Assembly: GCA_963783435.1 (NCBI GenBank)
Contig: CAWANQ010000004.1
Span: 148,560-212,559 of the forward strand
Reading direction: 5' to 3'
DNA length: 64,000 bases
Source of the DNA: an uncultured Bacteroidota bacterium
GTDB taxonomy: Bacteria; Bacteroidota; Bacteroidia; Bacteroidales; GCA-2748055
In this document: one piece after another, positions 3,601 through 32,658 of the stretch
Position numbering within the stretch: position 1 is the first letter of the stretch
Layout of the letters: each line of letters opens with the position of its first letter
Program-made: the position numbers and the translations under genes
Notes under the pieces: model-generated
Database searches by the model: none
What the model was told of the DNA's origin: nothing
The model's input: the letters and a program-made list of their open reading frames with translations, nothing else

Positions 3601-4358
3601 TAACTCATCTGAGGTTTAATCTGACGTGTAATTATTAACTCATCAATAATTCCATCAAAAGAGTAAGAAGCAGGTTCTCTTACAAAACCAGCCCTGTTTA
3701 AGGACGAAGGCGGAGTTAATTCATGGTTCCTGGCTATTTGTAATTCAAAATACCTGTCATTTAATAGATCGCCAACAACATTAAGTTCACCAACTTGTTC
3801 CCCGTTAACAAATACGGCCATACCTTTATCAGGATCATATGTTGCCGCGATATAGGACCATTCCATAAAGGGGATTTTCTTTTCGCTGACACATTCTCTC
3901 CATTGACGTGCGATGGCTGCATGTAAACCTATTCTACCTTCTCCGTCAATACCAAAAAATATTCCTCTTTGATGATGGTATTCCTGGTTATAAATGGCGC
4001 ACCAGTTCCATGGATAAGCCTGTGGAGCAACCCATGCTTCTATGGTAAATGGTCCACTAATACATGGAGCTTCATAACCATCGCGTGAAATACGTGTTGA
4101 AAATCCATCGCATTTTAAAGCTTTACCCTTTATGCCTTCAACCAGTTTGTAGTTACCCTTAATGATATCAGAAAAACCAGTTACTTCTTCGGGGGTTCTG
4201 TTATTCTCAACTTCATCGAAATTCCATTGAACTATGAGCTGACCGTCCTGAGCGCTTAATTTCTTAACAGGTATTGAAAACACAAACAGAAAAAATATAG
4301 CTCTGATCATTGTAAGGTGATGTAGTCTCATACAGCGAGATACTAGTAAATTCTTCAT
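3579..4358 (-). CDS. LamG / concanavalin-A-like lectin domain protein (probably the N-terminal half of a split LamG + unknown-domain gene)
   Basis: 259 aa with a signal peptide (IFFLFVFSIPVKKLSAQ). Aligns with the N-terminal ~280 aa of ORF 23532..25691 (WNFDE/WTFDD; FTIEAWV/FTIETWV; VFVNGEQV/VYVNGELK; FDGIIDELII/IDGILDELKL). Confidence 0.75.
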   Translation of the reverse strand: MKNLLVSRCMRLHHLTMIRAIFFLFVFSIPVKKLSAQDGQLIVQWNFDEVENNRTPEEVTGFSDIIKGNYKLVEGIKGKALKCDGFSTRISRDGYEAPCISGPFTIEAWVAPQAYPWNWCAIYNQEYHHQRGIFFGIDGEGRIGLHAAIARQWRECVSEKKIPFMEWSYIAATYDPDKGMAVFVNGEQVGELNVVGDLLNDRYFELQIARNHELTPPSSLNRAGFVREPASYSFDGIIDELIITRQIKPQMSYWKHIMN

Positions 4359-16300: not shown

Positions 16301-16395
16301 GTTTGGGCTCCTAATTGAGAGGCAGAGAAGAGAATGATCATAACCAGCGAAAACTGTAATGCATGTATGGTCGGGAGGTGATGGTTCTTTTTCAT
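13375..16395 (-). CDS. Large secreted glycoside-hydrolase-like protein of unrecognised family, with a T9SS CTD
   Basis: 1006 aa with a signal peptide. The N-terminal module (LNAAYRFAELIGCHFNLAGDVIPDQ) resembles N-terminal domains of GH20/GH67/GH115-type enzymes. The central region has a TIM-barrel-like character (MGFNFFGLHVYGEYD, DYFWLWTFE, WYEEDWG). The C-terminus LIYPNPATDQIRVE..GIYIVEVK is a T9SS CTD. Confidence 0.8.
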   Translation of the reverse strand: MKKNHHLPTIHALQFSLVMIILFSASQLGAQTIVYPGDGSKTELQAAKELRRYIFLRTGTAPDIATADTYNSLPEGDVIVVSGNSREIITELKQDYGNVDAPASDKRNGYIIKSINKDGRNVLVLVGADTLTTLNAAYRFAELIGCHFNLAGDVIPDQKLTFPLDIGNFDEKAQPWFELRGCLPFHNFLAGPDLWETNDYKSFISQQAKMGFNFFGLHVYGEYDQYGPLGVDGDGEFINYSKEGPEPHLWVGHRDDVNSDGTVKPEAAYESYWASTFRANHSWSNEPIKTSDFTNGADRLFPYDEAASEAIGFKLPLTPAEKAANFNKVGELLRESFTHAKQLGVKTALGSTAPMGFLPKHNREVYQDRVHYTPVDVQNRAQEVHGLTLPTSRGYTNEVFAKRMYEGLFTRIARTHPLDYFWLWTFETMTYGGDRTNDEAIEAVADDYRYCNEVMTKMETPIKMATFGWRVGSVGYGSSLEFHDDLPLDVPFGTLWDDAQGIKPVIDAGREGWSSVWYEEDWGLVQPQLRAMDAWFEVGAGLRAGGTQALVAKHWRVNSIAPASLAHAKLSWDNKATVDGDLLSIAEGAEKYRFFDKWDAPLESQDPSFVNWITKHYQDWAKANFGPERSDEIGSLLAMADRLGESHQIRRGLKGGIPKVARWLPSSITEFWLDDGDIVDYTDPTFIDAMYVYTQFCSYKDDIVGTGNIDRYLYWYHFFQAQLELSKLVVHEYFYRAEDRTPARKDSIIKTWAKVMEHEINRVRNVSELGVIAQLQQSTWDRLFKGEYDITERDVTFEADNAVRAYPEITQINENENFVQKVIFMGNGTVANPTMYYRKIGASGPFSSISLTPVNNSSYVMTASLADPGYDFEYYIQGTFGSDSVTYPVTGGYEISSINKTVITVEKIGFEPEELAPVGTIPDYTSVSENKGNSAVLIYPNPATDQIRVEASEGIEKIRIYSMVGELLLTDKNPTGLVSMSDFPNGIYIVEVKTGGQSAKRKVVKR

Positions 16396-19119: not shown

Positions 19120-21855
19120 TCAGAAGTCGACATTCTCAACAGTAATGACGGTTTTATTAATGTTATCGCTATCATTTCCACCCGTTACCGGATAGCTTAC
19201 CGTTTCTCCGTCTATAGAACCTTGTATGTAATATTCAAAATCATAACCCGGATTATCCAGATTGGATTTTCATGACATGCAGTACTGCTTTCAACAGAAG
19301 TAAGCGCTGAGCTTGAGAACGAGCCGTCAGTTCCAATCTCCCGATAATACATAACCGGATTTGTTATATTGCCATTACCCAGGAATATTACATTTTGTTC
19401 AAAGGACTCATCTTCATAGATCTGCGATATTTCAGGCATGGCTCTAACTGCACTTTCCCCCTCATAGGAAGTATTCAAATCAGTAATTCCATAGCGATCT
19501 CTGCATATATTATCCCATGTAGCCTGCTGTAATTGAAGGATTACTCCTAATTCTGATATATTTCTTACGCGTTGTATTTCATGTTTCATAATTCTCCCCC
19601 AACAAGCTATCAGGCTGTCTTTCTCTACGCTGGTCATCCCATCTTTCTGCAGCTGCGCACGATGACAGGCGAATCTGCCCATTTCTATTTGTGATTGAAA
19701 AAAATGATACCAATACATATAGCGGTCTTTGTTCCCGGTACCCACAATGTCATTCTTATAGGAGCAGAACTGATTATATATATCAAAAGCTTCAGCAAAC
19801 TTGCCCGTAAATGTCGTTGGTTCACCTCTGTCCGGATCGCTTGCTCTTATTACACTTGGTGCGGGTTCCCATGTTGAGATTGTTGGTATGGCATTTGGTA
19901 CTCCTGCCATAGGAGGTTTTGGCTCTCCAGCTCTATCCATTGAAGCTAATAGGTTTCCAATCTCAACGGACTTTTCCGGTCCAAAATTAGTTTTTGCCCA
20001 ATTCTGATAAAATTCCGTTATCCATTTTACATACACTGAGTCTTGTTCCTCGGTATTTCTCTGGAAGATATCTACTTCTGGAAAATGCTTGTTCTTCATC
20101 GCAATTCATTTGAAACAATCTCCCTGTTTTCCCAAACTAATTGTGCATGAGCTGCAGATGCAGGTGCTACTGAGTTAATACGCCAATGTTTGGCTATCAG
20201 AGCCTGCACACCTCCGATATCTAATCCAGCTCCTACTTCATTCCAGATTGTTGTAACTCTAAACTGAGGTTGGATCATACCCCAATCTTCTTCATACCAG
20301 CACGAAGACCATGCCTCACGACCCGCATCAATAACCGGCTTCAATCCTTCAGCCCTGTCCCAGAGTGTGCCAAATGGAACATCCAAAGGTAAATCATCAT
20401 GAAACTCTAATGGGCCCTTTCCTTTTGGTTGTTTAGTTCCCACAGTTCCCACTCTCCATCCAAATGTGGCTAATTTGAAGGGAGTATTCATCTCATTCAT
20501 TACTTCATTGCAATATCTGTAATCATCTGCAACGGCTTCAATTTGCTGTTTTGAGAGTCTGTGACCGAGATAGGTCCAGGTTTCGTAGGTCCAAAGCCAG
20601 AAATAATCCAGAGGGTGAGTCTTCATTATACGTGTAAATACTCCCTCATATAGTGCCTTTGTGAAAGCCTCGTTTACTGAACCTCTTTCTGTTGGTAAGG
20701 TAAAGCCATGAACATCTCTCATTCTGCTTTGTACATCCGGTGGGCAAGAGTGGATCCAGTCTGTTTCAACTAAGTGCTCTGGAATTACCTGGCTCAAAGC
20801 CCATCGGAGCTTCTGTCCCAATGGCCGTTTTAACACCCAGCTGGCGGGCATGTGAAAACGCATCCTTAAACATAAATCCCACATTGTTGAAGTTTGCTGC
20901 TTTTTCTGAAGGAGTTTCGGGCTCTTTTGAACCTATTGCTTCGGAAGCAACATAATCATTGACAAATAGTTTGTCGGCCCCACTGGTAAATTCCTTTGTT
21001 GTTACAGGAGCATACCCCCATATGCCTTCATTAGGATTACCCGCATAGAAATCACCCTTACGAAAAGAACTTGCCCAGTATGATTTATAAGCAGCCTCTT
21101 CTTTAACCGTGCCATCATCATTCAAATCATTTTTATGACCTATCCAGATGGAGGGTTCCGGTCCTTCCTGTGAGCCTTTAAATCCATTCTGGTTGTAATA
21201 ATGGAGACCAAAGAAATTAAAACCCATCTTCGCCTGTTGCGTAATAAATGATTTATAATCTTCAGTATTCCACAAATCAGGTCCGGTTGGAAAATCATGA
21301 AAGGGCAGACTACCTCGCAATTCAAACAAGGGTTGTGATTTCTCATCATACCCGCTCAAGGGAATTGGATAGCTTAACTTTTGATCAGGAATAACATCTC
21401 CTGCCAGATTAAAATGACAGCCTAATAATTCTGCAAATCTATAGGCCGCATTCAGGGTGGTTATTGTATCCGCTCCTGTAATGACCAGAATATCTCTTCC
21501 ATCATTTTTATTCACCGATTTTATCAGATAGCCCTTCCTGTTATCACTATCCGGAGCATCTACATTTCCGTATTCCTGCTTAAGTTCTGTAATAATATCC
21601 CGACTATCTTCCGAAACGATGATTACATCACCTTCAGGTAAACTGGCATATTGGTCTAGCAGTAGCGATCTCCGGAGCAGTGCCTGTGCGGAGGAAAATG
21701 TATCTTCTTACTTCTTTTGCTGCCTGGATTTCGGTGATCGATCCATCGCCAGGATAAAGCACCGTTTGGGCATTTAAATCACATGCTGAGATGAAAATAA
21801 ATACCAGAAACAACTTTATTCCATTAAATGCTGAGATCCGGTTGCTTGTTTTCAT
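19120..21855 (-). pseudogene. Pseudogenised tandem paralog of the 1006-aa hydrolase-like gene
   Basis: ORF fragments 21634..21942, 20766..21515, 20096..20884 and 19212..20099, plus an unannotated tail, are colinear with ORF 13375..16395. Examples: AQTVLYPGDGS../AQTIVYPGDGS..; TTLNAAYRFAELLGCHFNLAGDVIPDQKL; THPLDYFWLWTYE; VRNISELGVILQLQQATWD. They sit in at least 4 different frames. The first shift is an extra A at ~21655-21660 (GCT-A-GAC). The gene ends VITVENVDF* at 19120 and lacks the CTD. Confidence 0.85.
19345..19423. repeat. 79-bp perfect direct repeat, right copy (inside the pseudogene)
   Basis: Identical to 16611..16689. Here it encodes IYEDESFEQNVIFLGNGNITNPVMYY of the pseudogene. 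Confidence 0.95.
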
Positions 21856-22188: not shown

Positions 22189-23499
22189 ATGCTGATACTG
22201 AAAAACAACAAGACACTTCTTATTTCTGTAGTGACAATTCAGGCTTTTCTAACACTTGCCTGCACCAGGGCAAATCCAGGCATCGAATTGGATCCCCTGG
22301 TAATTGAGGGGCTCAAAGAACTCGGTTCCATTGAAGGATTTAAACCCTATGGGGCTAATCCGGTCTTGGCCACCGGACCCGAAGGATCTTTCGATGCAGG
22401 AGCACTGGGTTCTATGACTGTAGTTCTCGTTGACAGTGTTTTTCATCTATACTACGAAACCTGGGGAGTGCGGTCCGATGCCGAATGGGATGCGGATGAA
22501 TATGAATCTTTGACCGTGGGACATGCAATATCCCACGATGCTATAAACTGGAACAAAGATCCCGAAAATCCTGTTCTTGAAAGCGGTGGAGAAGCAGACT
22601 TTGACTACACGGGCGTATGGGATCCCTACGTCTTGTATGAGGATGGGGTCTTTAAAATGTGGTATGGGGGAGGCGGTGGCAGCCAGCCTAATCTGGGATG
22701 GGCCTATGCCACCTCTACCGATGGTACACATTTCGATAAACAGGGATTGATAGGGATCGGGAATCCCACCGGAGTGGAAGATTGTCATGTGGTTTTCGAT
22801 ACTGAATCGGGCCTTTATTATATGTACTACTGGTATGGATGGGATGAACCGGAAGGGCTCTATCTGGTCACTTCACCCACCGAGACAGGATTCAATTTCA
22901 ATGAAAAAATCCCTGTCAGGATCAAGGGAGACGATTCCTACATGAAAAAATTCGGACATGTGTTACGTGACAAAATGGGTTGGCACATGTTCTACTCCAA
23001 TTTTGTTCAACCCCATTGCCCGAACAGCATCACCCGCTATGCATATTCAACAGACGGGATCCACTGGGAGGCAAAGAATAAAAGATTGGTAAAGGGGCAT
23101 GATTCGGAAGTTTTAAAAGTCAGGGATGACCTCTTCCTGATGTTCTCCAGTCCCCGGAATGGCTTCGACAGGGTGGACTGTGACATTCGCCTTGCCATTT
23201 ATAGTGGAACACTGGAAGACCTTGCCAATAAAGCACCATTCTTTGAACTGCCTCAGGAAAGCAGCTTGTCAGGAAAAAAAATCACGATCAAAATACGGGA
23301 TGAGGAAGCCCTTGCTTTTCACTTCAAAGATGAGGGAGAAGTGGTTCTCTCGGAGGATACCAACAAAGAGGATCCATATACTTTTAACGCGCTATTTATT
23401 CATAAGGGGGAGCAGGTAATAATTAGCGGAGAAGGGATCAATCTGTCCGGGACCTATAATGGTAAAACACTTATACTGCGCGACAATGATACTGATTAA
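22189..23499 (+). CDS. Beta-propeller-fold glycoside-hydrolase-like lipoprotein (GH43/GH117/GH130-like clan)
   Basis: 436 aa with a lipobox (LTLAC). Repeated blade-like motifs FHLYYETWG, VWDPYVLYEDGVFKMWYGG, WAYATSTDGTHF, YYMYYWYGW, YAYSTDGIHW. Family assignment is uncertain. Confidence 0.6.
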   Translation: MLILKNNKTLLISVVTIQAFLTLACTRANPGIELDPLVIEGLKELGSIEGFKPYGANPVLATGPEGSFDAGALGSMTVVLVDSVFHLYYETWGVRSDAEWDADEYESLTVGHAISHDAINWNKDPENPVLESGGEADFDYTGVWDPYVLYEDGVFKMWYGGGGGSQPNLGWAYATSTDGTHFDKQGLIGIGNPTGVEDCHVVFDTESGLYYMYYWYGWDEPEGLYLVTSPTETGFNFNEKIPVRIKGDDSYMKKFGHVLRDKMGWHMFYSNFVQPHCPNSITRYAYSTDGIHWEAKNKRLVKGHDSEVLKVRDDLFLMFSSPRNGFDRVDCDIRLAIYSGTLEDLANKAPFFELPQESSLSGKKITIKIRDEEALAFHFKDEGEVVLSEDTNKEDPYTFNALFIHKGEQVIISGEGINLSGTYNGKTLILRDNDTD

Positions 23500-23531
23500 C
23501 CATAGAATTTAATCCAAACTTTAATCGGAAA

Positions 23532-25691
23532 ATGAAAAAACTAAGTTTTGTATTGCTGGCCTGTTTGACAGGGATAAGTACGGTTTTTGCACAGAAACCT
23601 TTAGCTCACTGGACCTTTGATGATATTAGAGTAGAGCGGAAAACTGTTGAAATGGTCCGGGGAGAAACCTATGTGCCCAAAGAAGTATTTGCCTACGTAA
23701 AGGAATCCGTCTCCGGAAAGGAAAATGAACTGCATGGTGTATACTATAAGGCAGTGCCTGGTGTGGTTGGAAATGCAGCCCTGCTGGATGGATATACAGC
23801 CTACCTTGAATTACAGATGGGCCAGGGTAAAAACGATCAATCATCGGGGGACCACATACCCCACATTACAGAAGATTTCACCATTGAAACATGGGTCGCA
23901 CTGGGAGCCTACCCGAAAAATATATGTCCGATCCTTGATAACCGAAGAGATGAAGCAGACGGGTACTACAATGGTTACAGCATGGAAATGGATGCCATGG
24001 GGCGCCTTGTACTGAAGGTTGCCACTGAAGGCAAATATGAAATAGCCATGTCGCATGAGACCATCCCTTTGAACGAGTGGACGCATCTGGCTGCCAGCTA
24101 CTCAAAAGAAAAGGGGCGCCTGGCAGTCTATGTAAATGGAGAACTAAAGGATGAAACCTTTGCAAGAGAGGCTTTCAAGCCAACTGCACGAGACTGGCAT
24201 TTTACATCTTTGCTCATCGGCAAGAGCAGGGCAGCCATGCGGCCCTACGGAACCATCAGGCCCGAAGGTACAGAGACGTCCTTCACTTTTATTGACGGCA
24301 TCCTGGATGAACTGAAACTTTATGAAGCAGCACTTGGTGATAAGCAGGTTGCTGAGATTTACAAGAGTCAGCGAATAACTGACGAACCTGAACTTCCCAA
24401 ACGTATTCTCCCATCGGGGCCCCAGTCACCAGGAACATTCCGGGCGGTGAATACACGCCTGAAGTATTACGAAGGGTGGGATGCCCCCTGGGCGATCCAT
24501 GACAATGCAGATATCGTTGTACAATTTGATGAAACAGACTGCAAATTCGTATTCTGGCATGGAACAAGCTATATTCCCTCCTGGGTGACGGAGAATAATA
24601 TCTGGTTCAACAATGGATTTAATGAGGGCTGGAACGAACATGGAAGCTGTGAGCCCATGTCTGATAAAAAGGCGAAATATTCCAGTGTAAAGATCGTTGA
24701 AAGCAATGAGGCACGCGTGGTGGTCCAGTGGCGTTACGCGCTGGTGGATGTAACAGGTATATTCGCTTTTGAAGATCCGGTTACCGGATGGGGTGACTGG
24801 ACCAACGAGACTTTTACTATTTACCCGGATATGGTTGGAGTGCGTGAAGACCTCCTGCTGAGCAATGCGCCCAATGCAGCCCATGAATGGCAGGAGAGCA
24901 TGATGGTCCTTGCCCCGGGTCAACGCCCCTCCGAGGTTTTGAACTTTGAGGCACTTTCCCTGGCAAATATCAAGGGTGAATCAAAGACCTATTCCTGGGA
25001 GCATGAAATACCGCCCCATCTCCCGCCCTATCCTGAAGAGCCGGTGGTGCAGGTGGTCAATACAAAATCGGAATACCATCCTTTCTCAGCGCTTAGACCG
25101 CAGGATGATCCTGGGATCGATATTTACAGCGGAGAGATCCGCAGAGATGTAGATGTTTTTCCCTGGTGGAACCACTGGCCCGTGGCCCCTCGGCCAACCG
25201 ATGGACGCTATGCAATGTTCGAGGACCGTGCAGCGCATGCATCGGTGTCACATTGGCTCTGGGACCCGTACAAGGTAACGGACCGGTCCATGACGAAATT
25301 GATGCTGAACGGAATGACCAATAAACCGGTTGAAGAACTCATTCCTGTAGTAAAAGCCTGGTCAAATCCTGCCGATATCATCCTGGTTGAGAAAAGTCAC
25401 AGTGCAAGCTATACACCCGAAGAAAAGGCCTATACCATCAATCTTTCCGGTGAAGTATCCAGCCTGGATTTCACACTAAAGGGCAGCGAAGATTCACCAA
25501 TCGTGAATCCGGCCTTCGTAATTGAAAACTGGGGCAATGCAGGCCTTGAAATCATGGTGAATGGAGAAAAAATAGAGCGGGGAAAGAATTTCAGATATGG
25601 ATTGCGGGAGTCGCTCGACAATCGTGACCTGATCGTTTGGCTGCGCATGGAGTCAGAAGAGGAAGGCAAATTCTCATTGCAGAAGAAATAG
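23532..25691 (+). CDS. LamG domain fused to the recurrent uncharacterised domain (paralog P2, the fused archetype)
   Basis: 719 aa with a signal peptide. Residues ~20-280 are LamG-like (FTIETWV, VYVNGELK, IDGILDELKLY). Residues ~290-719 carry the family blocks ARVVVQWRYA, GDWTNETFTIYPD, PWWNHWPVAPRPTDGRY, NPAFVIENWG, VNGEKIERGKNFRYG. Confidence 0.85.
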   Translation: MKKLSFVLLACLTGISTVFAQKPLAHWTFDDIRVERKTVEMVRGETYVPKEVFAYVKESVSGKENELHGVYYKAVPGVVGNAALLDGYTAYLELQMGQGKNDQSSGDHIPHITEDFTIETWVALGAYPKNICPILDNRRDEADGYYNGYSMEMDAMGRLVLKVATEGKYEIAMSHETIPLNEWTHLAASYSKEKGRLAVYVNGELKDETFAREAFKPTARDWHFTSLLIGKSRAAMRPYGTIRPEGTETSFTFIDGILDELKLYEAALGDKQVAEIYKSQRITDEPELPKRILPSGPQSPGTFRAVNTRLKYYEGWDAPWAIHDNADIVVQFDETDCKFVFWHGTSYIPSWVTENNIWFNNGFNEGWNEHGSCEPMSDKKAKYSSVKIVESNEARVVVQWRYALVDVTGIFAFEDPVTGWGDWTNETFTIYPDMVGVREDLLLSNAPNAAHEWQESMMVLAPGQRPSEVLNFEALSLANIKGESKTYSWEHEIPPHLPPYPEEPVVQVVNTKSEYHPFSALRPQDDPGIDIYSGEIRRDVDVFPWWNHWPVAPRPTDGRYAMFEDRAAHASVSHWLWDPYKVTDRSMTKLMLNGMTNKPVEELIPVVKAWSNPADIILVEKSHSASYTPEEKAYTINLSGEVSSLDFTLKGSEDSPIVNPAFVIENWGNAGLEIMVNGEKIERGKNFRYGLRESLDNRDLIVWLRMESEEEGKFSLQKK

Positions 25692-25710
25692 CAAGAAGGA
25701 GTATAAAACA

Positions 25711-26400
25711 ATGATAAAGAAGATTTTTATTGCAGCACTTATGTTTGTGTTAGTAGGCAATGCAAATGCCCAAAACGATCTAAGAGATTCTCGTGATGGC
25801 AATATCTATGGTGTAGTAAAAATTGGCGAACAGGTATGGATGGCGGAAAACCTGAAATATCTACCAGGGGTAGCAGGTCCCGGAACGGGTTCAGAAACAA
25901 AACCGTATTATTATGTGTATGGCTATAACGGAACAAGTGTAAGTGACGCCAAAGCCAATGCAAATTATGCAACCTACGGCGTATTGTACAATTGGCCTGC
26001 AGCTATGAATGAAACTGCAAGCAGCACAGCCAACCCAAGCCCTGTACAGGGGGTATGTCCGAGCGGCTGGCATTTACCAAGCGATGCAGAATGGACAGCG
26101 CTTACAGATCATTTAGGCAGGCGTGTTGCCGGTGGTAAACTAAAAGAAACAGGCACGAATCACTGGGACAGCCCCAATAAAGGAGCAAGCAACAAAACCG
26201 GCTTTACAGCCCTTCCGGGTGGCTACCGTAATGAGGATGGTACTTTCGTCAGTATGGGTGAAGACTTTGACTGCTGGAGTGCTTCTGAGTACAATACCAA
26301 TAACGCCTGGTTCCGGAATATACACTTCAATGACAATGATGTGGGCAGGAACAATTACAATAAGGCAACAGGCTTTTATATTCGCTGTGTGAGGGATTAA
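25711..26400 (+). CDS. Fibrobacter-succinogenes-major-paralogous-domain (FISUMP-type) secreted protein
   Basis: 229 aa with a signal peptide. Hallmark string DSRDGNIYGVVKIGEQVWMAENLKY...YGVLYNW..CPSGWHLPSDAEWTAL...GGKLKETGTNHWDSPN..GFTALPGGYR...IRCVRD. Confidence 0.85.
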   Translation: MIKKIFIAALMFVLVGNANAQNDLRDSRDGNIYGVVKIGEQVWMAENLKYLPGVAGPGTGSETKPYYYVYGYNGTSVSDAKANANYATYGVLYNWPAAMNETASSTANPSPVQGVCPSGWHLPSDAEWTALTDHLGRRVAGGKLKETGTNHWDSPNKGASNKTGFTALPGGYRNEDGTFVSMGEDFDCWSASEYNTNNAWFRNIHFNDNDVGRNNYNKATGFYIRCVRD

Positions 26401-26422
26401 TTAAAAACCAACAAGGACTGTC

Positions 26423-27964
26423 ATGAAAAAGTTTTTTTATCTATTGATTCTGGTGATCCTGGTGGTGAATTGCACCACCAAAACCGGAGAAAAACCAGCA
26501 TATCTCGATGGGGCTTACGAACCCGAATGGAGCTCACTTGCGAACCACGAAACACCCCAGTGGTTCGAAGATGCGGTACTGGGATTTTATTGGCACTGGG
26601 GCCCGTATTCCGTGCCCGCTTTTGGTTGCTGGGGAGGAAGGAACATGTACATGCCCGATGGGGGAACTTCAGAGAATTGGGGACACATAGAAGATCAATA
26701 CGCAAATACCTACGACTATGTGAAGAAGGTATACGGTGATCCCGGCCTGGAATGGGGATACAAAGACTTTATCCCCATGTTCAAAGCCGAGAATTGGGAT
26801 CCTGACGCCTGGGCAGAATTGTTTAAAATGGCCGGGGCAGATTTTGCAGGTCCGGTGGCCATTCATCATGATGGTTTTGCCATGTGGGCCAGCGAGCACC
26901 ACGAATACAATTCTGGCGATATGGGCCCTAAGCGGGATATCACCGGGGAGATTCTTGAGGCCGTCCGTAAACAGGACATGAAAACCTTTGCATCCTTTCA
27001 TTATTACACAAATTGGTTCTACTTCAATCCCGGACGCATGCTCTGTCCGTTCAAAACCGATGTGAATGATCCGAAGTATTCAGGATTGTACGGGCCGGTG
27101 AGGGATATTAAAGATCCATGGCAAAACGAACCCATTTCTGAAGCATTCCAGGAGGAATGGTACAAATGTGTAGCAGAAGTCATCGACAAATACAGTCCCG
27201 ATCAGCTCTGGTTTGAGATCGGCTTCAGCGATCCGGATGCCATTGGCGAGAACTATGTCCAAGCAAGCCTTGCACACTACTTCAATACGGCTGAGGCACA
27301 AAACAAGGAAGTGGTGGTTACGCGCAAAGATGATGACCTTCCGCTGAATTGTTCGGTCCTGGATATTGAAGCTGGTGAACTCGATTCACCCCGCGAAGTA
27401 GTCTGGCAAACCGATATCGCCCTGGGCCATAATCACTCCTGGGCCTATTCACCCGATGCCATTTGCCGACCCGTGAACATGATCATAGATGAAATCGTGG
27501 AGAGAAAGAGTAAGAATGGAGTAACCCTATATAGCCTGGCACCACTCGCTGACGGAACCCTCCCACCCTCCCAGGTTGAAGGACTAAAGGAACTGGGAAA
27601 GTGGATGGCCATCAATAAGGAGGCATTGCATGGCGCTAAACCCCCTGTTTTTACTGATGGTGCACCCGATATTTGGAAATCTGGTACAATCCGATTCCTC
27701 GCGAAAGGGGATTTTATTTATGCTATAGAATTGGGCAATGAGATCATGGAAGTGGAAGATGCTAAGCTTTATAGAGAAAGTATCGAACCAAAAGCGCCTT
27801 TTAAGATTCCCGGGCTCAAACCTTCTGAAGGATCAGAGATTGTAATGCTGGGTAGCCAAGAGGCACTTCCCTGGCACATGGAGGAAGAGCTCCTGGTCAT
27901 CGAGAACATACCCGATCCGCTGCCCTGTGAGCACGCCTGGAGCTTCAGGGTGCGCTACAAGTAA
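26423..27964 (+). CDS. GH29 alpha-L-fucosidase
   Basis: 513 aa with a signal peptide. GH29 blocks FYWHWGPYSVPAFG, WAELFKMAGADFAGPVAIHHDGFAMWAS, GPKRDI, SPDQLWFE. Confidence 0.9.
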   Translation: MKKFFYLLILVILVVNCTTKTGEKPAYLDGAYEPEWSSLANHETPQWFEDAVLGFYWHWGPYSVPAFGCWGGRNMYMPDGGTSENWGHIEDQYANTYDYVKKVYGDPGLEWGYKDFIPMFKAENWDPDAWAELFKMAGADFAGPVAIHHDGFAMWASEHHEYNSGDMGPKRDITGEILEAVRKQDMKTFASFHYYTNWFYFNPGRMLCPFKTDVNDPKYSGLYGPVRDIKDPWQNEPISEAFQEEWYKCVAEVIDKYSPDQLWFEIGFSDPDAIGENYVQASLAHYFNTAEAQNKEVVVTRKDDDLPLNCSVLDIEAGELDSPREVVWQTDIALGHNHSWAYSPDAICRPVNMIIDEIVERKSKNGVTLYSLAPLADGTLPPSQVEGLKELGKWMAINKEALHGAKPPVFTDGAPDIWKSGTIRFLAKGDFIYAIELGNEIMEVEDAKLYRESIEPKAPFKIPGLKPSEGSEIVMLGSQEALPWHMEEELLVIENIPDPLPCEHAWSFRVRYK

Positions 27965-27994
27965 GCCCGAATACATTAGATCAAGCAAGAGGAT

Positions 27995-29452
27995 ATGAAA
28001 ACAAATCTGCGTTTACTACTTCACCCCTTATTGATATGCATTTTGCTGGCATCGTGCAGTAGAAATAAGGGGGAAGAGGCCAGGGTAACTGAAACCTTGC
28101 TGCATCCTGCAGACTCATTCTATGCAGTCGGGCTTACAGATACTCTGGTTCAGTACATGGAACCTGGCTTTAAGGTCCCGCGCGAAGTGAGTAAGATAGC
28201 CTGTGAAGTGTATTTCGACCTGGTCCCTACAAAAATGCGATTCAGCATGCCCTGCTATCCCTGCATGGTCACAGAGAACAACATTCACTATTCCAGCGGT
28301 TGGACCGAAACCTATGATCCAAAAGCCTCCAGTTCCTGTGAGATTCTATGGGATAATGAGGCCCGGACAGCCAGGATGTGGATCGAAAGTCAGAACCCCG
28401 CACGGGTTGTTGTGCGCTTCAGGGCAGCTATAGCCGATCCGGACGGGTATATCGGACATTCTTACATTCCCAGCGGATCACCCTATGGAATGGGCGACTG
28501 GACAGACGAATGGTACTATATATACCCGGACGGTATGCACACCCGCCACGTAAGGATCTATACAGGTCTGGCCGGGCAGAGCCTGACAGTAACCGATGAA
28601 CAATTCGAAAGGATGGGACCCATCAGGGAAATTCCTCCAACGGTAGTGCATGAATTCCATGAAGAATTCATCTTCGGCCAGGATGGACATATCCCGGGAG
28701 ACGATATTGACCTTGAAGCCCTGACATTTATAAAAATGGACGGCAGCACACGGACCTTTTCATTTGATCCCTACCCCAGTGATTTTGGAGATTTCACCAT
28801 GGCCAATATCATGGTGGTTAATACCCGATCGGACTACAAACCCTACACGATCTTCATCCCCTATGGCCTGGAGAATCAGCCCTACCCTCTTGAAGGCAAA
28901 GCGCCTCATGTTTTCCAGACCTGGCCCAGCGATCCAGGAGATAAGGGATACTCCGTTTCACTCGGGCATACCCTGAACTGGTGGCATTACAGGCGCAATG
29001 ACACAATCCTGGAACAGGTATACCTTTCAGGCATGATACACGCTGAAGATCCGGGAAAGGAATTGCTGCCACTGGCAAAGTCCTGGCTGAACTATCCCAG
29101 GCTACTCATGGAAGGTCATGAAGTATCGTATACCCAGGCATCCTATGACCAGGCACAGCGGGCATATATTATTCCGGGAGAAGAAAATGGTCCACGGAAG
29201 ATAGCTCTGCAACTGGGGTTCCCGGAAAAATTCGAAGAGGAAGTATTAATCCCGGTCAATATCGTGAATCCAGCCTTCATTGTTCCCGATTGGGGAAGGT
29301 CTGACCTGGCAATTAAGGTCAATGGCAGGGAACTCAAGCAGGGCAAAGAATACCGTAAAGGCTACGAAGAAGGAAAAATGGGTACAGACCTTGTCATCTG
29401 GCTGAATTACAAAGCAAATAGGAAAACCTCGATCGAAATAATACCCATGTAA
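27995..29452 (+). CDS. Uncharacterised conserved-domain lipoprotein (paralog P3 of the recurrent family, no LamG)
   Basis: 485 aa with a lipobox (LLASC). Family blocks ARVVVRFRAA, GDWTDEWYYIYPDGMHTRH, NPAFIVPDWG, VNGRELKQGKEYRKGY. Confidence 0.8.
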   Translation: MKTNLRLLLHPLLICILLASCSRNKGEEARVTETLLHPADSFYAVGLTDTLVQYMEPGFKVPREVSKIACEVYFDLVPTKMRFSMPCYPCMVTENNIHYSSGWTETYDPKASSSCEILWDNEARTARMWIESQNPARVVVRFRAAIADPDGYIGHSYIPSGSPYGMGDWTDEWYYIYPDGMHTRHVRIYTGLAGQSLTVTDEQFERMGPIREIPPTVVHEFHEEFIFGQDGHIPGDDIDLEALTFIKMDGSTRTFSFDPYPSDFGDFTMANIMVVNTRSDYKPYTIFIPYGLENQPYPLEGKAPHVFQTWPSDPGDKGYSVSLGHTLNWWHYRRNDTILEQVYLSGMIHAEDPGKELLPLAKSWLNYPRLLMEGHEVSYTQASYDQAQRAYIIPGEENGPRKIALQLGFPEKFEEEVLIPVNIVNPAFIVPDWGRSDLAIKVNGRELKQGKEYRKGYEEGKMGTDLVIWLNYKANRKTSIEIIPM

Positions 29453-29500: not shown

Positions 29501-30739
29501 CTAGCGAAGTTCGAAATTAAGTACCTTATTAAGTATCAACGAAAAGGCTCCCATTATCGCGGCATTTAATCCAAATTCCACAGGCAGAATTTGAACCTGT
29601 CGAGCGGTGGGGTGCATACTGTTTTTCTGAACTGTAGCACGGATATTATCAAAAAAGATATCCCCGGCCATGGATACACCGCCACCGATCACGATCAGGT
29701 CGGGATTGAATATCCCGATCAGGTTGGATATTCCCAAGCCGATATATTCCATAGCCCTAGTAAAAACGTTCAGGGCCATTTCATCTCCCTGTTTTGCCGC
29801 ATCCGCGACCATTTTGGCCGTTACCTTGCTGTAATCACCGCCACACATCTCCTGAAGAATGCTTTCCTGTCCCCGTGCCAGGCGGCTCTGTGCTGTAAAC
29901 GAAATGGCCTTTCCGGATGCCAATGCTTCCAGGCAGCCGTATTTTTTACAGCTGCACTGGATATCGCTGTCTTTGTCTATCGTAATATGCCCGAATTCCC
30001 CGGCGAATCCGTCCGTTCCGGTGAGAAGTTTTCCATTTGCAATAATACCGGAACCGATCCCGTACCCGACATTGATACAAATAAAGTTCTGCAGCGTTTG
30101 CCCTTTCCCAAAACACATGCCTCCAAGTGCCATCAGCCGGGTCACATTGTCAAAGATAATAGGGAAATCCACCCTGCTTTCAAGAGCTTTCAGGATGTCC
30201 ACCCTGTTCCAGTCAAAGACCGGGGAGTATTCAACGATCTTCTTATTGAGGTCAACCAGTCCTGCCACAGCAATTCCCACCCCGTATATCCGCTCTTTCT
30301 TCACATTGCTCTTACTTTCAGACAACTGCTTGATCAGTTTGGCAACATCCGATATCACCGCATCAAACCCCTCGTCAAGCCGTGTGGGAAACTCGATCTC
30401 GGTAATGAATTTGCCATCAAGGTCTGAAAGGACTCCGCGTGTAGTAGTAGCCCCCAGGTCTATACCAATTACATAAGTCCTTTTACCGTCAAATTTCAAA
30501 AGCACAGGAGGTCTTCCGCCGCTCGAGGTGCCCTTACCAAGGGATACGACTAGCTTTTCTTGACGTATCAGGCTGTCAACGATGCGGGTGACTGTAGGTG
30601 CGCTCAGCCCGGATTTCTTTACCAGATCAGCCCTGGAAAGAATCCCGTGATCTCGTATTAAACCCAGTACACTAATCTTATTTAAACGATTGATATAGAT
30701 CGCATTACCCTTGGGCATATCATTTTCCACGTAAGTCAT
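29501..30739 (-). CDS. ROK-family transcriptional regulator (wHTH + ROK sugar-binding domain)
   Basis: 412 aa. N-terminal wHTH (SRADLVKKSGLSAPTVTRIVDSL). ROK core (IGIDLGATTTRG, GFAGEFGH) with a Cys-rich zinc motif CSCKKYGCLEA. Confidence 0.88.
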   Translation of the reverse strand: MTYVENDMPKGNAIYINRLNKISVLGLIRDHGILSRADLVKKSGLSAPTVTRIVDSLIRQEKLVVSLGKGTSSGGRPPVLLKFDGKRTYVIGIDLGATTTRGVLSDLDGKFITEIEFPTRLDEGFDAVISDVAKLIKQLSESKSNVKKERIYGVGIAVAGLVDLNKKIVEYSPVFDWNRVDILKALESRVDFPIIFDNVTRLMALGGMCFGKGQTLQNFICINVGYGIGSGIIANGKLLTGTDGFAGEFGHITIDKDSDIQCSCKKYGCLEALASGKAISFTAQSRLARGQESILQEMCGGDYSKVTAKMVADAAKQGDEMALNVFTRAMEYIGLGISNLIGIFNPDLIVIGGGVSMAGDIFFDNIRATVQKNSMHPTARQVQILPVEFGLNAAIMGAFSLILNKVLNFELR

Positions 30740-30779: not shown

Positions 30780-30840
30780 ATCATATATTTGCTAAAATAA
30801 GAATTAAATCCTTTAAAAGAAGCTATTAATCCCATTGATT

Positions 30841-32658
30841 ATGAAAGCCTTTAGAAAGTTCATGTTTTTGCCGGTACTTGTTTTACTATTCTCGTGTACG
30901 GGGGACAATACAAAGCCAGGTTCACAAGAAAGATACGAGCCCACGTGGGAATCGGTAAGGCAGAATCCGACTCCGAAATGGCTAAGGGATGGAAAATTTG
31001 GCATATACACGCACTGGGGGCCCTATGCAGTTCATGCCTATGGCGAGAACACCACATGGTATTCTTACCAGTTGTATAAAAACGAGGACGGGGAAGAACG
31101 AAAGCACTTCGAGGAGAACTTCGGGAAACTAACCCCTGAATTCGGATACAAGGACCTCATCCCCCTGTTCACCGCGGAAAACTTTGATGCGGATGAATGG
31201 GCCGAGCTTTTTCAGAAAGCCGGTGCACGCTGGGCCGGTCCGGTAGCAGAACATCATGACGGTTTCGCCATGTGGGACACAAAATGGTCGGAGTGGAATG
31301 CAGCTAAGATGGGACCGAAACGGGATGTTGTGGCAGAACTTGAACAGGCTGTAAAAAAGCGTGGAATGAAATATGTGACCGCTTTTCACCACGCGGCCAA
31401 CTGGTTCTTCTTTCCGGTCTGGGATAAACGTTATGATACCGGTGATCCTGCAAACTCAGGATTGTACGGGCAATTCCACCTCGAAGGAGAAAAGCGGAAC
31501 CAGGATTTCCTGGATGAATGGTACGGAAAAATCATCGAAGTGATCGATAATTACAGTCCGGATTTTATCTGGTTCGACTTTGCATTGGATGAAATACCTG
31601 AAGGATATGTCAAAGATTTCCTGGCCTACTACTATAATCATGCACTGGATCACAACAAAGAGGTTGTCGTTACTTATAAAGGACACGACCTTGTTCCCTT
31701 TTCTGGTGTTCGTGACCTTGAGCTGGGACAGGAACCCAGACTAACCTATAACGAATGGATAACCGACAATTCGGTGGATGACCGGGGAGCCTGGGGATGG
31801 GCCAAGGACTTAACATTTAAAACTCCCAACCGACTGATTGATAACCTGGTCGACAGGGTTAGCAAGAACGGATACCTCCTGCTAAATGTGGGCCCAAAGC
31901 CGGACGGAAGCATCCCCGAAGGCGCCAGGGAAGTACTGCTCGCAATGGGTGAATGGCTTGAGATAAACGGCGAGGCAATCTATGAAACAACTCCCTGGAT
32001 CATCGCGGGTGAGGGTCCGGTGAACCTGGGCGAAGCCTCAGACATTGGCTTTAATGAATCTGGTGTCGAATATACTGCCAGGGATATACGTTTTACCATG
32101 AAAGGCGACAATCTTTATGCAACGCTGCTGGACTGGCCAGGAAAAATGGTCCTGATCACTACCCTGAGAGGAGTCCGGGAGGCAGCGGAAGTCGATGAAG
32201 AAGAGGACCAACTGCTGGTAGAACTGACAGCTGAAGACAGGAAAGTAGAAGGTAAAACCATTTCGGCAGAATTGGAAGGGGATGTATATACCTTTACATT
32301 CAAGGCTGAGGGTGAGGGATTTGTCTGCGGAGGCATTGCAGGAGAAGGTATAATCTTTGAATATGAGCAGGAAGGAACAGAGATCTGGATCGGCATCGAA
32401 GATGATGACTTCGAGGCCTACTATGACGGGGTGAATTTTGAAATAGAAGCCGATGCCGGTGTACAAAGTTATCCCGGATTTTATAAGGAGGAGATCAAAC
32501 GGATAACAATGCTTGGCGATGGCAGGGAACTGGAATGGGAACTCACGCCCAAAGGCCTTAGGGTGGTGTTACCCGAAGAGAAACCCTGCGATCACGCCTG
32601 GGTATTGAAGATTGAGAGATACCATCACCCCAAACTGTCAGAAATGAAAACAGATTAA
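30841..32658 (+). CDS. GH29 alpha-L-fucosidase with a C-terminal extension
   Basis: GH29 blocks IYTHWGPYAVHAYG, WAELFQKAGARWAGPVAEHHDGFAMWDT, GPKRDV, SPDFIWFD. The extra ~170-aa C-terminal region includes an acidic stretch (EVDEEEDQ). The track start at 30835 is TTG; the ATG at 30841 gives MKAFRKFMFLPVLVLLFSC. Confidence 0.9.
   Translation: MKAFRKFMFLPVLVLLFSCTGDNTKPGSQERYEPTWESVRQNPTPKWLRDGKFGIYTHWGPYAVHAYGENTTWYSYQLYKNEDGEERKHFEENFGKLTPEFGYKDLIPLFTAENFDADEWAELFQKAGARWAGPVAEHHDGFAMWDTKWSEWNAAKMGPKRDVVAELEQAVKKRGMKYVTAFHHAANWFFFPVWDKRYDTGDPANSGLYGQFHLEGEKRNQDFLDEWYGKIIEVIDNYSPDFIWFDFALDEIPEGYVKDFLAYYYNHALDHNKEVVVTYKGHDLVPFSGVRDLELGQEPRLTYNEWITDNSVDDRGAWGWAKDLTFKTPNRLIDNLVDRVSKNGYLLLNVGPKPDGSIPEGAREVLLAMGEWLEINGEAIYETTPWIIAGEGPVNLGEASDIGFNESGVEYTARDIRFTMKGDNLYATLLDWPGKMVLITTLRGVREAAEVDEEEDQLLVELTAEDRKVEGKTISAELEGDVYTFTFKAEGEGFVCGGIAGEGIIFEYEQEGTEIWIGIEDDDFEAYYDGVNFEIEADAGVQSYPGFYKEEIKRITMLGDGRELEWELTPKGLRVVLPEEKPCDHAWVLKIERYHHPKLSEMKTD

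Follow-up and report, generated by a model that had tools for sequence, protein, structure and literature searches.

A large exported domain without a named family as a candidate enzyme for the breakdown of fucose-rich polysaccharides

Among marine polysaccharides, fucoidans and other sulfated glycans rich in fucose belong to the most recalcitrant, and they are of importance for carbon sequestration. To our knowledge, only a handful of families that cleave the fucan backbone have been described (GH107, GH168, GH174, GH187 and, recently, GH141), and we know of many fucosidase-rich loci with no recognisable endo-enzyme. A stretch of 64,000 nucleotides from an uncultured Bacteroidota bacterium, here called the window, raises the question of whether a recurrent domain that carries no family name, referred to below as domain X, could supply such an activity. 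Considering its sequence conservation and genomic surroundings together, we give a probability of roughly 0.5 to domain X being an exported, so far unclassified carbohydrate-active catalytic module on L-fucose-containing glycans. It would then probably be an endo-acting hydrolase that feeds GH29; catalysis, the hydrolase class and the endo mode of action are what we infer.

The initial annotation described four genes with one colinear domain, and its open reading frames exist in the window. A tblastn search with the full 719-aa product of 23532..25691 agrees with this description, as it returned exactly three further colinear matches in the window, at 2206..3606 plus 3636..4310 on the minus strand (E 1.4e-92), at 28115..29425 (E 3e-37) and at 26..445 (E 2.8e-14). 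Domain X spans about 430 aa and is 28-35% identical among the four paralogs, which are listed here together with the modules of the focal gene.

2..1294, plus strand: fourth paralog, truncated at the edge of the window; last ~150 aa of domain X (2..~480), two Big_7 Ig domains and a T9SS C-terminal domain
2179..4358, minus strand: third paralog, LamG-X, split into ORFs 3579..4358 and 2179..3600 (tblastn colinearity)
23532..25691, plus strand: focal gene, 719 aa; signal peptide, LamG and domain X (ORF and translation; Laminin_G_3 is the sole Pfam match)
23868..24353, plus strand: LamG (Laminin_G_3) module, residues 113-274 (PF13385, E 3.1e-17, 63.5 bits, cut-off 27.6)
24399..25688, plus strand: domain X, residues 290-719 (no Pfam, NCBIfam or PDB match; AF2 model all-beta)
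27995..29452, plus strand: paralog consisting of domain X alone, 485 aa, lipoprotein-type signal (alignment and tblastn)

The sequence blocks quoted earlier for these genes are present in the translations and in the alignment, namely ARVVV[QRH][WF]R[YA]A, GDW[TA][ND]E..IYPD and a C-terminal NP[AV]F..NW[GN], with WNHWPV..DGR in two of the copies. Export signals, likewise claimed to lie on or next to the copies, were found directly: the focal protein has a type-I signal peptide, 27995..29452 a lipoprotein signal (LLASC) and 3579..4358 a signal-like N-terminus, and residues 362-430 of the 2..1294 product match the T9SS C-terminal sorting domain (PF18962, 57.5 bits; TIGR04183, 47.4 bits). In the focal protein the PF13385 match is confined to the N-terminal module, a probable carbohydrate-binding accessory module, and domain X lies outside it. 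Two of the four paralogs are LamG-X fusions, one of them split by a frameshift. The ORFs 3579..4358 and 2179..3600 had been taken for two genes and are instead one, colinear with focal residues 1-261 (frame -3) and 272-716 (frame -2), with a PF13385 match of 58.2 bits in 3579..4358; reading of the junction sequence places a single frameshift at ~3606-3636, so that 2179..4358 is either a pseudogene or an assembly error.

Domain X had been presented as a domain that fits no named family, and the databases agree: it has no match in Pfam, NCBIfam (June 2026) or PDB sequences, and neither the single sequence nor a 42-sequence profile retrieved anything from the PDB at E<=10. At the same time it represents a large and real family, with 1,644 clusters at 50% identity at E<=1e-3 and 461 at E<=1e-30 in an exhaustive HMM search. 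A genome scan gave 359 relatives, the best 80 of which belong to Bacteroidota, Planctomycetota, Verrucomicrobiota, Lentisphaeria, Acidobacteriota, Aminicenantes, Hydrogenedentota and others, the closest among them being Cytophagales-like and 'Bacteroidales' MAGs. Soil Acidobacteriota have the domain in abundance and cultured Flavobacteriaceae only rarely (best 80 of the 359 relatives and homologue search), the latter appearing among the relatives listed only as Flagellimonas, Allomuricauda and Seonamhaeicola. Cultured carriers include Flagellimonas algicola AsT0115 and Agaribacillus aureus BMA12. Judged from these sequences the family is large and old. Its named homologues are called 'LamG domain-containing' or 'hypothetical' and nothing else, and the cluster members of ten representatives of ~860-920 aa bear only the names 'LamG' or 'hypothetical'. 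A tblastn search of 72,556 plasmids, a collection that might include megaplasmids for fucoidan degradation, gave no match. In the literature on LamG and fucoidan and on new fucoidan-active families we found nothing describing domain X; a large 2026 screen of ~120 unknown proteins from GH29-containing PULs reported four new families, none of them fucan-active or fitting the description of domain X (bioRxiv 10.64898/2026.05.19.726164).

The structure prediction and fold search proposed in the initial annotation point to a large supersandwich-like module rather than a simple lectin. The AF2 model of domain X (pLDDT 88.6, pTM 0.91) is all-beta with two short helices and has a C-terminal beta-sandwich at about residues 615-719. 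Its best Foldseek matches are LacZ, presumably through the galactose-mutarotase-like domain 5, L. lactis GalM and the PL15 alginate lyase Atu3025 (E 1e-5 to 1e-4), with 330-370 aligned columns, TM scores of 0.28-0.42, an rmsd of 9-11 Å and 6-11% identity. The best structural neighbours are mostly non-catalytic accessory domains (LacZ and the PL15 sandwich) or a mutarotase, and the resemblance to galactose-mutarotase-like supersandwiches is at most a distant one of fold class; with TM scores of only 0.3-0.4, the fold gives neither proof nor hint of any particular chemistry. When the N-terminal half was modelled alone (pLDDT 83.5), Foldseek gave no match at E<0.1, and domain X thus behaves as one unit.

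To describe conservation we used 140 diverse full-length representatives taken from the 50%-identity clusters, numbered as in the focal protein. Seven polar residues in the first half of the domain stand out: R395 (100%), D378, Y431 and D433 (99% each), E374 (98%), R401 (96%) and E365 (94%), and they are kept in all three full-length paralogs of the window. Polar conservation at this level is typical of active sites, and a site for Ca2+ or for sugar binding could be built just as well from the same Asp, Glu and Arg residues. The near-invariant acidic residues that had been predicted are therefore present; the GDWxDE block that had been singled out among them is not the best catalytic candidate, because the focal protein has Asn at position 425, where 86% of the family have Asp, and because E374, D378 and D433 are more strictly conserved.

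The architectures are those of exported proteins. About 80% of the members have signal-peptide-like N-termini by a crude heuristic, and an architecture of ~860-900 aa is common. LamG is fused to domain X in 35 of the 42 long members, which also carry pentaxin, Calx-beta, F5/8-C, NPCBM, PA14, CE2_N, dockerin and T9SS C-terminal domains, so that the recurrent partners in this sample are solely binding, Ig-like or sorting modules. Among the 42 there is no recurrent partner with a known catalytic role; GH115_C, isochorismatase and sialidase-related domains occur in one or two members each. As read from these fusions, the domain logic is that of a CAZyme.

In the window, the focal gene is part of a run, 22189..29452, with spacings of 20-33 nt, and the genes in and around this run and beside the frameshifted paralog are the following.

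22189..23499, plus strand: first gene of the run, 436 aa; no Pfam match, weakly similar to GH130 beta-1,2-mannoside phosphorylases
25711..26400, plus strand: Fib_succ_major (FISUMP) domain protein in the run (PF09603, E 1.1e-39)
26423..27964, plus strand: GH29 alpha-L-fucosidase between two X genes of the same run (PF01120, E 1.1e-76)
29501..30739, minus strand: ROK-family regulator with a MarR-like HTH; homologues recur beside X genes in Bacteroidota (ROK cluster, 9 loci)
30835..32658, plus strand: second GH29 alpha-L-fucosidase (PF01120, E 1.7e-96)
4546..6867, minus strand: GH141-like beta-helix protein adjoining the frameshifted LamG-X gene (Beta_helix and GH141_M matches)

Homologues of 22189..23499 adjoin LamG-X genes in loci L007, L008, L023 and L025 and, by clustering, also in L027. 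The surroundings described earlier, with two GH29 enzymes, about a dozen S1 sulfatases and beta-helix proteins, were seen as claimed. The accompanying statement that no recognisable endo-fucanase is present in the window is weak, since 4546..6867 scores as GH141 and a second beta-helix T9SS protein is encoded at 53447..56725; in a fucoidan cluster, enzymes of GH141 have proved to be endo-fucanases (PMC12786026). We also compared the unassigned ORFs 13375..16395 and 19212..21515 with the PDB in search of a hidden known fucanase and obtained no enzyme match.

The genomic association was observed across phyla by clustering all neighbours within +/-10 kb at 79 loci from Bacteroidota, Planctomycetota, Acidobacteriota and other phyla, which makes the context unbiased evidence. 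The commonest neighbours are a Zn-ADH (29 loci), an SSF symporter (25), GH29 (24) and S1 sulfatase (20), followed by a rhaM-type mutarotase (13), two SusC/TBDR clusters (13 and 12), SusD (12), GH141 (11), an Amidohydro_2 protein that is a fuconolactonase-like amidohydrolase (11), an aldo-keto reductase (10) and ROK (9); GH95 is present in L001, L002, L014 and L016. A GH141 cluster occurs in 10 of the 25 acidobacterial loci, and in those with the gene order read it is divergently adjacent to the X gene. In the Planctomycetota loci L034 and L035, five to six X paralogs stand in tandem, with a single GH29, an SSF symporter and a Zn-ADH after them, and domain X is the only endo-enzyme candidate among their classifiable ORFs, with one or two flanking ORFs per locus unannotated. 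In soil and peat Acidobacteriota the partners are GH29, GH141 and L-fucose catabolism genes, often with no sulfatase near. The association with glycan-utilisation loci is thus strong and extends far beyond this genome, but the narrower link to sulfated fucan does not: because the acidobacterial loci often have no sulfatase, the common denominator is fucose-containing glycans in a wider sense. Since, in six bacterial phyla or more, it lies beside fucosidases and genes of L-fucose catabolism, domain X makes a credible but unproven new enzyme family for the breakdown of fucose-rich polysaccharides. The findings that the initial annotation had named as speaking against its proposal did not appear: there is no confident match to a characterised family and no purely lectin-like predicted fold, catalytic-type residues are conserved, and polysaccharide loci of other genomes carry the domain.

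Several known families can be set aside. The endo-fucanases of GH107 and GH168 have a (beta/alpha)8 barrel as catalytic domain and solved structures in the PDB, and membership is ruled out by the all-beta model with its two short helices and by the lack of a PDB sequence match. The periplasmic beta-1,2-glucanases OpgD and OpgG (GH186) consist of a catalytic beta-supersandwich followed by a small C-terminal Ig-like beta-sandwich; they resemble domain X in combining a large supersandwich with a C-terminal sandwich and in being extracytoplasmic, and differ from it in substrate context. By this precedent, which implies no homology, glycoside hydrolases can be built as a supersandwich with an Ig-like domain at the C-terminus. 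Domain X does not itself belong to GH186, as it has no MdoG match in Pfam (E<=1) and an hhalign probability of 0.4% against E. coli OpgG, and OpgG and OpgD are not among the 50 Foldseek matches listed. GH141 and GH29 share loci, and presumably substrates, with domain X, but as a beta-helix and a TIM barrel their folds are entirely unlike it, and Pfam and Foldseek gave no similarity. The FdlA-type fucoidan lyase, which we take to be the founder of PL43, is ruled out by the lack of a PDB sequence or profile match and by the sandwich type of the fold matches shown. FdlA-type lyases are right-handed parallel beta-helices with solved structures in the PDB (PMC9410043).

Closer to domain X are the endo-alpha-1,3-L-fucanases of GH174 (Fun174A/Rm/Sb/Ri) and GH187 (Fun187A), which are likewise secreted and beta-sheet-dominated with similar sizes (PMC11943901, PMC12534559, PMC11685898), occur in marine Bacteroidota and Planctomycetota among fucan-utilisation genes and are absent from Pfam-type libraries. 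Domain X could already be in CAZy, as the catalytic domain of GH187 or of some other very recent family for which Pfam and NCBIfam have no model, although we consider this quite unlikely. GH174 and GH187 are reported to escape reliable detection by dbCAN v3 (PMC11685898), both are described as beta-sheet-dominated, as domain X is, and their phyla overlap with those found here in Bacteroidota, Planctomycetota and Verrucomicrobiota (PMC12534559). The founder of GH187, Fun187A, is an endo-alpha-1,3-L-fucanase of Wenyingzhuangia aestuarii, and the family was set up from the catalytic domain of this multidomain protein of ~101 kDa (PMC11943901), a size near that of the ~860-900-aa X proteins. Yet Wenyingzhuangia appears neither among the named homologues nor in the best 80 of the 359 genome loci, nor among the named matches of a third homologue search seeded with Flagellimonas; NCBIfam of June 2026 holds no model for domain X, and the NCBI name is only 'LamG domain-containing'. 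Moreover, the fucoidan-degrading Planctomycetota strains 892 and 913 are reported to have only one or two GH187 homologues, those of strain 892 lying outside PULs (PMC11685898), whereas domain X typically forms tandem arrays in that phylum. For GH174, a structure study of 2024 is cited in PMC12534559, yet profile and Foldseek searches found no PDB relative of domain X, an argument that counts only if that structure is a crystal structure and is in the PDB data searched. The critical residues reported for Fun174A (PMC11943901) are the adjacent D119 and E120 with E218 ~98 residues downstream, a spacing unlike that of domain X, whose sole invariant adjacent D-E pair (GDWxDE) is followed by invariant Glu at +48 and +51; this argument is weak, as it compares numbering and not an alignment. 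Directly behind the other invariant Asp, 97 of 101 aligned sequences have R, K, N or D. The comparison with GH174 thus draws on PDB profile and fold searches and on residue spacing, and that with GH187 on published descriptions.

It is also conceivable, if unlikely, that domain X is non-catalytic, a large surface glycan-binding or capture module (SGBP- or adhesin-like) that with LamG would tether fucose-rich polymers to the cell while GH29, GH95, GH141 and other enzymes alone cleave them. The domain is all-beta and fused to lectin-like LamG, it occurs within SusC/SusD PULs, where SGBPs are common, its fold neighbours are mainly accessory sandwich domains, and no activity has been reported for any named homologue. 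However, binding modules tend to conserve aromatic platforms, and a domain of 430 aa with seven polar residues 94-100% identical across phyla would be unusual among them. The X proteins already carry bona fide binding modules and dockerins, the domain is equally common in Planctomycetota and Acidobacteriota, which are without SusD-type systems, and the arrays of five to six paralogs with a single GH29 would be left with no depolymerase among their annotated genes. Still less do we favour another chemistry on the same substrates, which appears very unlikely; domain X would then act as a polysaccharide lyase, remove esters or modify the substrate in some other way, or be an extracytoplasmic enzyme of epimerase or mutarotase type, as would suit its distant galactose-mutarotase-like fold. 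Weak Foldseek matches to galactose mutarotase (TMt 0.37-0.42) and to the PL15 alginate lyase 3a0o are in favour of this alternative, and lyase active sites, too, typically have invariant Arg, Tyr and Asp. Against GalM, however, the alignment reaches a TMq of only 0.31-0.35 with an rmsd of about 9 Å, and identity with aldose 1-epimerase was rejected since domain X has no Pfam Aldose_epim match and an hhalign probability of 0.2% against an Aldose_epim protein of locus L003. In addition, rhaM-type mutarotases, and in one case an Aldose_epim mutarotase, are already encoded in the loci, no uronate-catabolism genes recur among the neighbours at the 79 loci, and export together with fusion to binding modules argues for a polymeric substrate.

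Returning to domain X as an exported catalytic module, it would work at the first, extracellular or periplasmic step of the use of L-fucose-containing glycans. For the marine Bacteroidota locus studied here the substrates would be fucoidan-like polymers or sulfated fucans, and for soil Acidobacteriota they would be fucosylated glycans that are non-sulfated or weakly sulfated. LamG and the other appended binding modules may hold the polymer while the beta-supersandwich cuts internal or branch glycosidic bonds, with candidate catalytic carboxylates from E365, E374, D378 and D433 and with R395 and R401 positioning the substrate. The S1 sulfatases encoded nearby could then remove sulfate from the released oligosaccharides, with GH29, GH95 and GH141 trimming them; the SSF symporter would import the freed L-fucose, and the mutarotase, dehydrogenase and lactonase of the locus would catabolise it. 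Several paralogs per locus may reflect different linkage or sulfation specificities. We lean against, but put forward as a tentative extension, the stronger proposal that domain X is a new glycoside-hydrolase family, possibly a new catalytic fold class of CAZymes with a supersandwich that resembles galactose mutarotase only distantly, and the main endo-depolymerase for fucose-rich glycans in Planctomycetota, Acidobacteriota, Verrucomicrobiota and Cytophagia-type Bacteroidota. If true, it would supply the missing endo-activity in loci where the exo-acting GH29 is the one glycosidase that can be recognised, and would link marine fucoidan turnover with an unrecognised pathway of fucosylated-glycan turnover in soils and peat.

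With more than 1,600 clusters found together with GH29, GH141, sulfatases and L-fucose catabolic genes, domain X is a well-defined and directly testable candidate, and thousands of proteins now named 'LamG domain-containing' or hypothetical stand to gain an annotation. Its abundance in peat and soil Acidobacteriota points to a little-studied pool of fucosylated substrates on land. Even if domain X should prove to be GH187, the range and context of that family would be considerably extended. The stand-alone paralog 27995..29452 belongs to a subfamily separate from LamG-X, with 555 homologues, and members of both subfamilies lie on the same contigs in other organisms; a protein identical to the product of 23532..25691 is present in public data.

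The 719-residue product of 23532..25691 carries a signal peptide and a Laminin_G_3 domain at residues 113-274 (63.5 bits; Pfam), while its remaining 430 residues (290-719, hereafter domain X) had no match in either Pfam-A or NCBIfam with the cut-off relaxed to E<=1, in agreement with the unassigned status given to them in the initial annotation. Searching the whole window with this protein by tblastn we recovered three further colinear copies and no others, so that the four genes proposed to share X do so. All the motif blocks originally quoted are present in the alignment of the window paralogs, where identity is 28-35%.

23532..25691, + strand: focal LamG-X gene
27995..29452, + strand: stand-alone X with a lipoprotein signal (tblastn E 3e-37)
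2179..4358, - strand: LamG-X (tblastn E 1.4e-92, two frames)
first 480 bases, + strand: X at the window edge, followed by two Big_7 domains and a T9SS sorting domain (tblastn E 2.8e-14; Pfam)
22189..23499, + strand: GH130-like protein of 436 aa, directly upstream of the focal gene

The ORFs 3579..4358 and 2179..3600 are one LamG-X gene broken by a single frameshift between about 3606 and 3636, where there is no long homopolymer. True LamG-X fusions are therefore two of the four copies, and the LamG ORF earlier described as adjacent to X belongs to the same gene.

Word-indexed searches retrieved 1,715 LamG-X and 555 stand-alone relatives, named only "LamG domain-containing" or "hypothetical". 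When 1.84 billion representatives were searched exhaustively with an HMM, 1,644 clusters (50% identity) scored E<=1e-3, 461 of them E<=1e-30. Members come in four architectures: X by itself (about 450-490 aa), its fusion to LamG (about 700-730 aa), proteins of about 860-920 aa that have X in their C-terminal half, and giant proteins of 1,100-1,900 aa; the stand-alone and LamG-X subfamilies share contigs in other organisms too. According to Pfam, LamG accompanies X in 35 of 42 long members, the other recurrent partners being modules for binding or sorting or with an Ig-like fold, namely pentaxin, Calx-beta, fn3, F5/8-C, NPCBM, PA14, CE2_N, dockerin and the T9SS CTD. No known catalytic domain recurs among these 42 proteins, with GH115_C, isochorismatase and sialidase-related matches found in just one or two each. 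The expected export is borne out by the signals on the focal and stand-alone proteins and by a signal-peptide-like N-terminus, scored with a crude heuristic, in about 80% of complete members. Extra partial copies, present in about a third of the representatives listed, cover the N-terminal half of X (HMM positions ~40-196) and in some cases the C-terminal sandwich as well (~352-475). Some of the longer proteins, P0245, P0301 and P0275 among others, have a reduced copy lacking the central ~150 residues upstream of the complete one. The sequences suggest that X is built from separable modules and has undergone internal duplication.

Conservation was assessed over 140 full-length representatives from the 50% identity clusters. 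The eight most conserved polar positions, E365 (94%), E374 (98%), D378 (99%), R395 (100%), R401 (96%), Y431 (99%), D433 (99%) and R438 (87%), fall without exception in the N-terminal half of the domain, and each of the three full-length window paralogs retains them. The earlier remark on conserved acidic residues is borne out, with E374, D378 and D433, not the GDWxDE block, as the best catalytic candidates. Catalytic carboxylates would come from among E365, E374, D378 and D433. Residue 425 of the focal protein is Asn (GDWTNE), where 86% of the family and the other two full-length window paralogs have Asp; this substitution could mark changed specificity or lower activity in the focal copy.

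The AlphaFold2 model of X, built from a 42-sequence alignment (pLDDT 88.6, pTM 0.91), is all-beta, with about 31 strands, two short helices and a C-terminal beta-sandwich of about 100 residues. Its Foldseek matches in the PDB are distant (E 1e-5 to 1e-4, TM 0.28-0.42, rmsd 9-11 A) and include LacZ, presumably through its mutarotase-like domain 5, the PL15 alginate lyase 3a0o and the galactose mutarotase of L. lactis. When modelled by itself, the N-terminal half had no Foldseek match. Given such distant matches and a matchless N-terminal half, any kinship of X with the galactose-mutarotase-like supersandwich class is remote at best, and X has no solved homologue. In GH186 (OpgD/OpgG) the supersandwich is catalytic and is accompanied by a C-terminal Ig-like domain, which makes this family the closest to X in architecture; homology is not detectable, and profile comparison of X with OpgG showed no relationship.

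The focal gene lies in a tight run (gaps 20-33 nt) that comprises, in order, the GH130-like protein, LamG-X, a Fib_succ_major protein, a GH29 and the stand-alone X; next come a ROK regulator, in divergent orientation, and another GH29. The remainder of the window forms a very large locus for sulfated glycans, with about twelve S1 sulfatases, GH2, GH3, GH31, a SASA esterase, two beta-helix proteins (one GH141-like, the other a T9SS protein), a TonB-dependent receptor and an MFS transporter.

For X loci in other genomes, 84 loci were taken, ORFs were called, all 900 neighbour proteins were clustered without prior labels and the biggest clusters were then annotated by Pfam. Counts refer to 79 loci, within +/-10 kb of X after removal of duplicate contigs, and are lower bounds, short contigs being common among the loci: Zn-dependent alcohol dehydrogenase (Zn-ADH; 29 loci), sodium:solute symporter (SSF; 25), GH29 alpha-L-fucosidase (24), S1 sulfatase (20), rhaM-type mutarotase (13), SusC and TonB-dependent receptors (13 and 12), SusD (12), GH141 (11), Amidohydro_2 (11), aldo-keto reductase (AKR; 10), ROK regulator (9) and Fe-dependent alcohol dehydrogenase (8), with GH95 in several loci as well. 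L-fucono-1,5-lactonase, of the non-phosphorylative L-fucose route, belongs to the Amidohydro_2 family. The anticipated association with polysaccharide loci thus extends beyond this genome, and the pattern is seen within each phylum separately. The 25 acidobacterial loci, mostly from soil, peat and bog MAGs, hold TonB-dependent receptors (12), GH141 (10), Zn-ADH (10), GH29 (9), SSF (9), rhaM (7), lactonase-like proteins (7) and AKR (7), with a sulfatase in only 5; the proposed substrate class therefore has to be widened from sulfated fucan to fucose-containing glycans.

Where gene order was read in acidobacterial loci, TonB-dependent receptor, rhaM and GH141 diverge from X, Zn-ADH, SSF, AKR and amidohydrolase. 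This order is conserved in the soil and peat loci L050, L051, L054 and L056, carried by Acidobacteriota and one Candidatus Aquilonibacter MAG, which often also include a GntR/FCD regulator and a PdxA-like/SBD_N pair; it has the look of an entire acidobacterial locus for fucoside utilisation that has gone undescribed. In the Planctomycetota loci L034 and L035, five or six tandem X paralogs are directly followed by one GH29, SSF and Zn-ADH, with no other recognisable glycosidase among classifiable ORFs and one or two flanking ORFs per locus unannotated. Planctomycetota arrays of four to six paralogs (L034 3..12831; L035 3531..15230; L082 9191..18108; L005 3715..11251) mix architectures of about 480, 700, 830 and 910-960 aa. 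Extra genes in some Bacteroidota X loci (L002 12492..14125; L016 15711..17344; L010 18334..19677) encode 3keto-disac_hyd (DUF1080-type), a xylose-isomerase-like TIM protein (AP_endonuc_2) and a GFO/IDH/MocA oxidoreductase, a trio linked with pathways that cleave glycosides oxidatively (3-keto).

Export, decoration with binding modules, the lack of any other catalytic domain and active-site-like conservation, together with the paralog arrays and the consistent linkage to exo-fucosidases, L-fucose uptake and catabolism, all point the same way: X may be a catalytic module active on carbohydrates that attacks fucose-containing glycans ahead of GH29. We assign a probability of about 0.5 to X being an enzyme on fucosylated glycans. 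The most likely chemistry is that of an endo-acting or branch-cleaving glycoside hydrolase, and an endo-fucanase-type hydrolase specifically is a tentative proposal; catalysis, hydrolase chemistry and endo mode are all three what we infer from this evidence. A non-catalytic capture protein is unlikely in view of the same conservation and arrays. Another chemistry, such as that of a lyase or epimerase-type enzyme, is very improbable; an alginate lyase and a mutarotase are among the distant fold matches, and profile comparison with aldose 1-epimerase revealed no relationship.

Whether the enzyme is new is a separate matter. GH107 and GH168, whose solved structures show TIM barrels, are ruled out, because X is all-beta in the model and has no sequence match in the PDB. 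GH141 is a beta-helix family, found in the window as a protein separate from X. An FdlA-type fucoidan lyase is likewise ruled out, FdlA being a beta-helix (PMC9410043). A beta-sheet-dominated fold is described for both GH174 and GH187 (PMC12534559), and the two are said to escape reliable detection with dbCAN v3 (PMC11685898). GH174 is an unlikely identity, because neither profile nor fold search found a PDB relative of X, which bears on GH174 only if the PDB copy includes its structure (a 2024 study, as cited in PMC12534559), and because the reported critical residues D119/E120/E218 are spaced unlike the invariant DE...E residues of X, as judged from numbering. That X belongs to a family CAZy already has would leave the biology unchanged and affect novelty only; we consider this rather improbable, and identity with GH187, on which novelty hinges, equally so. 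For GH187 the comparison is one of descriptions and occurrence: its founder, at 101 kDa (PMC11943901), is near a common X architecture, but only 1-2 copies are reported in fucoidan-degrading Planctomycetota (PMC11685898) against tandem X arrays, and no Wenyingzhuangia homologue of X appeared among the named matches listed or the best 80 of 359 genome loci. The evidence, which is indirect, leans against GH187.

New GH families turn up regularly, and what would be new in X is the family and fold, a secreted PUL-type glycan-degrading module being a known kind. X is a well-delimited, very widespread candidate CAZyme family of unusual fold that is open to experiment and shows a striking tie to fucose metabolism across biomes. 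The initial annotation stands on the family, its unassigned status, acidic residues, export and locus association, and needs amending on substrate, catalytic block and the endo-fucanase gap. The argument from that gap, its "missing endo-fucanase", is weakened because the window holds GH141-type proteins, and GH141 enzymes of a fucoidan cluster are endo-fucanases (PMC12786026). Two large beta-helix proteins, 53447..56725 (-) and 4546..6867 (-), one with a T9SS tail and the other scored as GH141 (GH141_M, 31.7 bits), are further candidates for cleaving the backbone here, as alternatives to X, since GH141 endo-fucanases and FdlA are both beta-helices.

The 22189..23499 product had no Pfam match and is weakly similar to GH130 beta-1,2-mannoside phosphorylases (PDB 9fj8, E 6e-7); its homologues adjoin LamG-X in several related loci (L007, L008, L023, L025, L027). 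Flanked by sulfatases and a GH3, 13375..16395 (-) encodes a 1,006-aa protein recognisable only by its T9SS C-terminal sorting domain, ~930 residues having no match in Pfam or PDB; it is a second candidate unassigned secreted enzyme, with a size in the range reported for Fun187A, the GH187 founder. At 19212..21515 (-), three overlapping ORFs (249, 262 and 295 aa) apparently form one ~770-800-aa gene with two frameshifts. Its product gave neither Pfam nor PDB sequence matches. Visual inspection shows a likeness between its N-terminus (DILVITGADTITTLNAAYRFAELLG...) and the N-terminal domains of GH115/GH20-type enzymes, and a further unclassified CAZyme or a pseudogene are both conceivable. The frameshifts here and in 2179..4358 suggest either real pseudogenisation in the locus or assembly indel errors.
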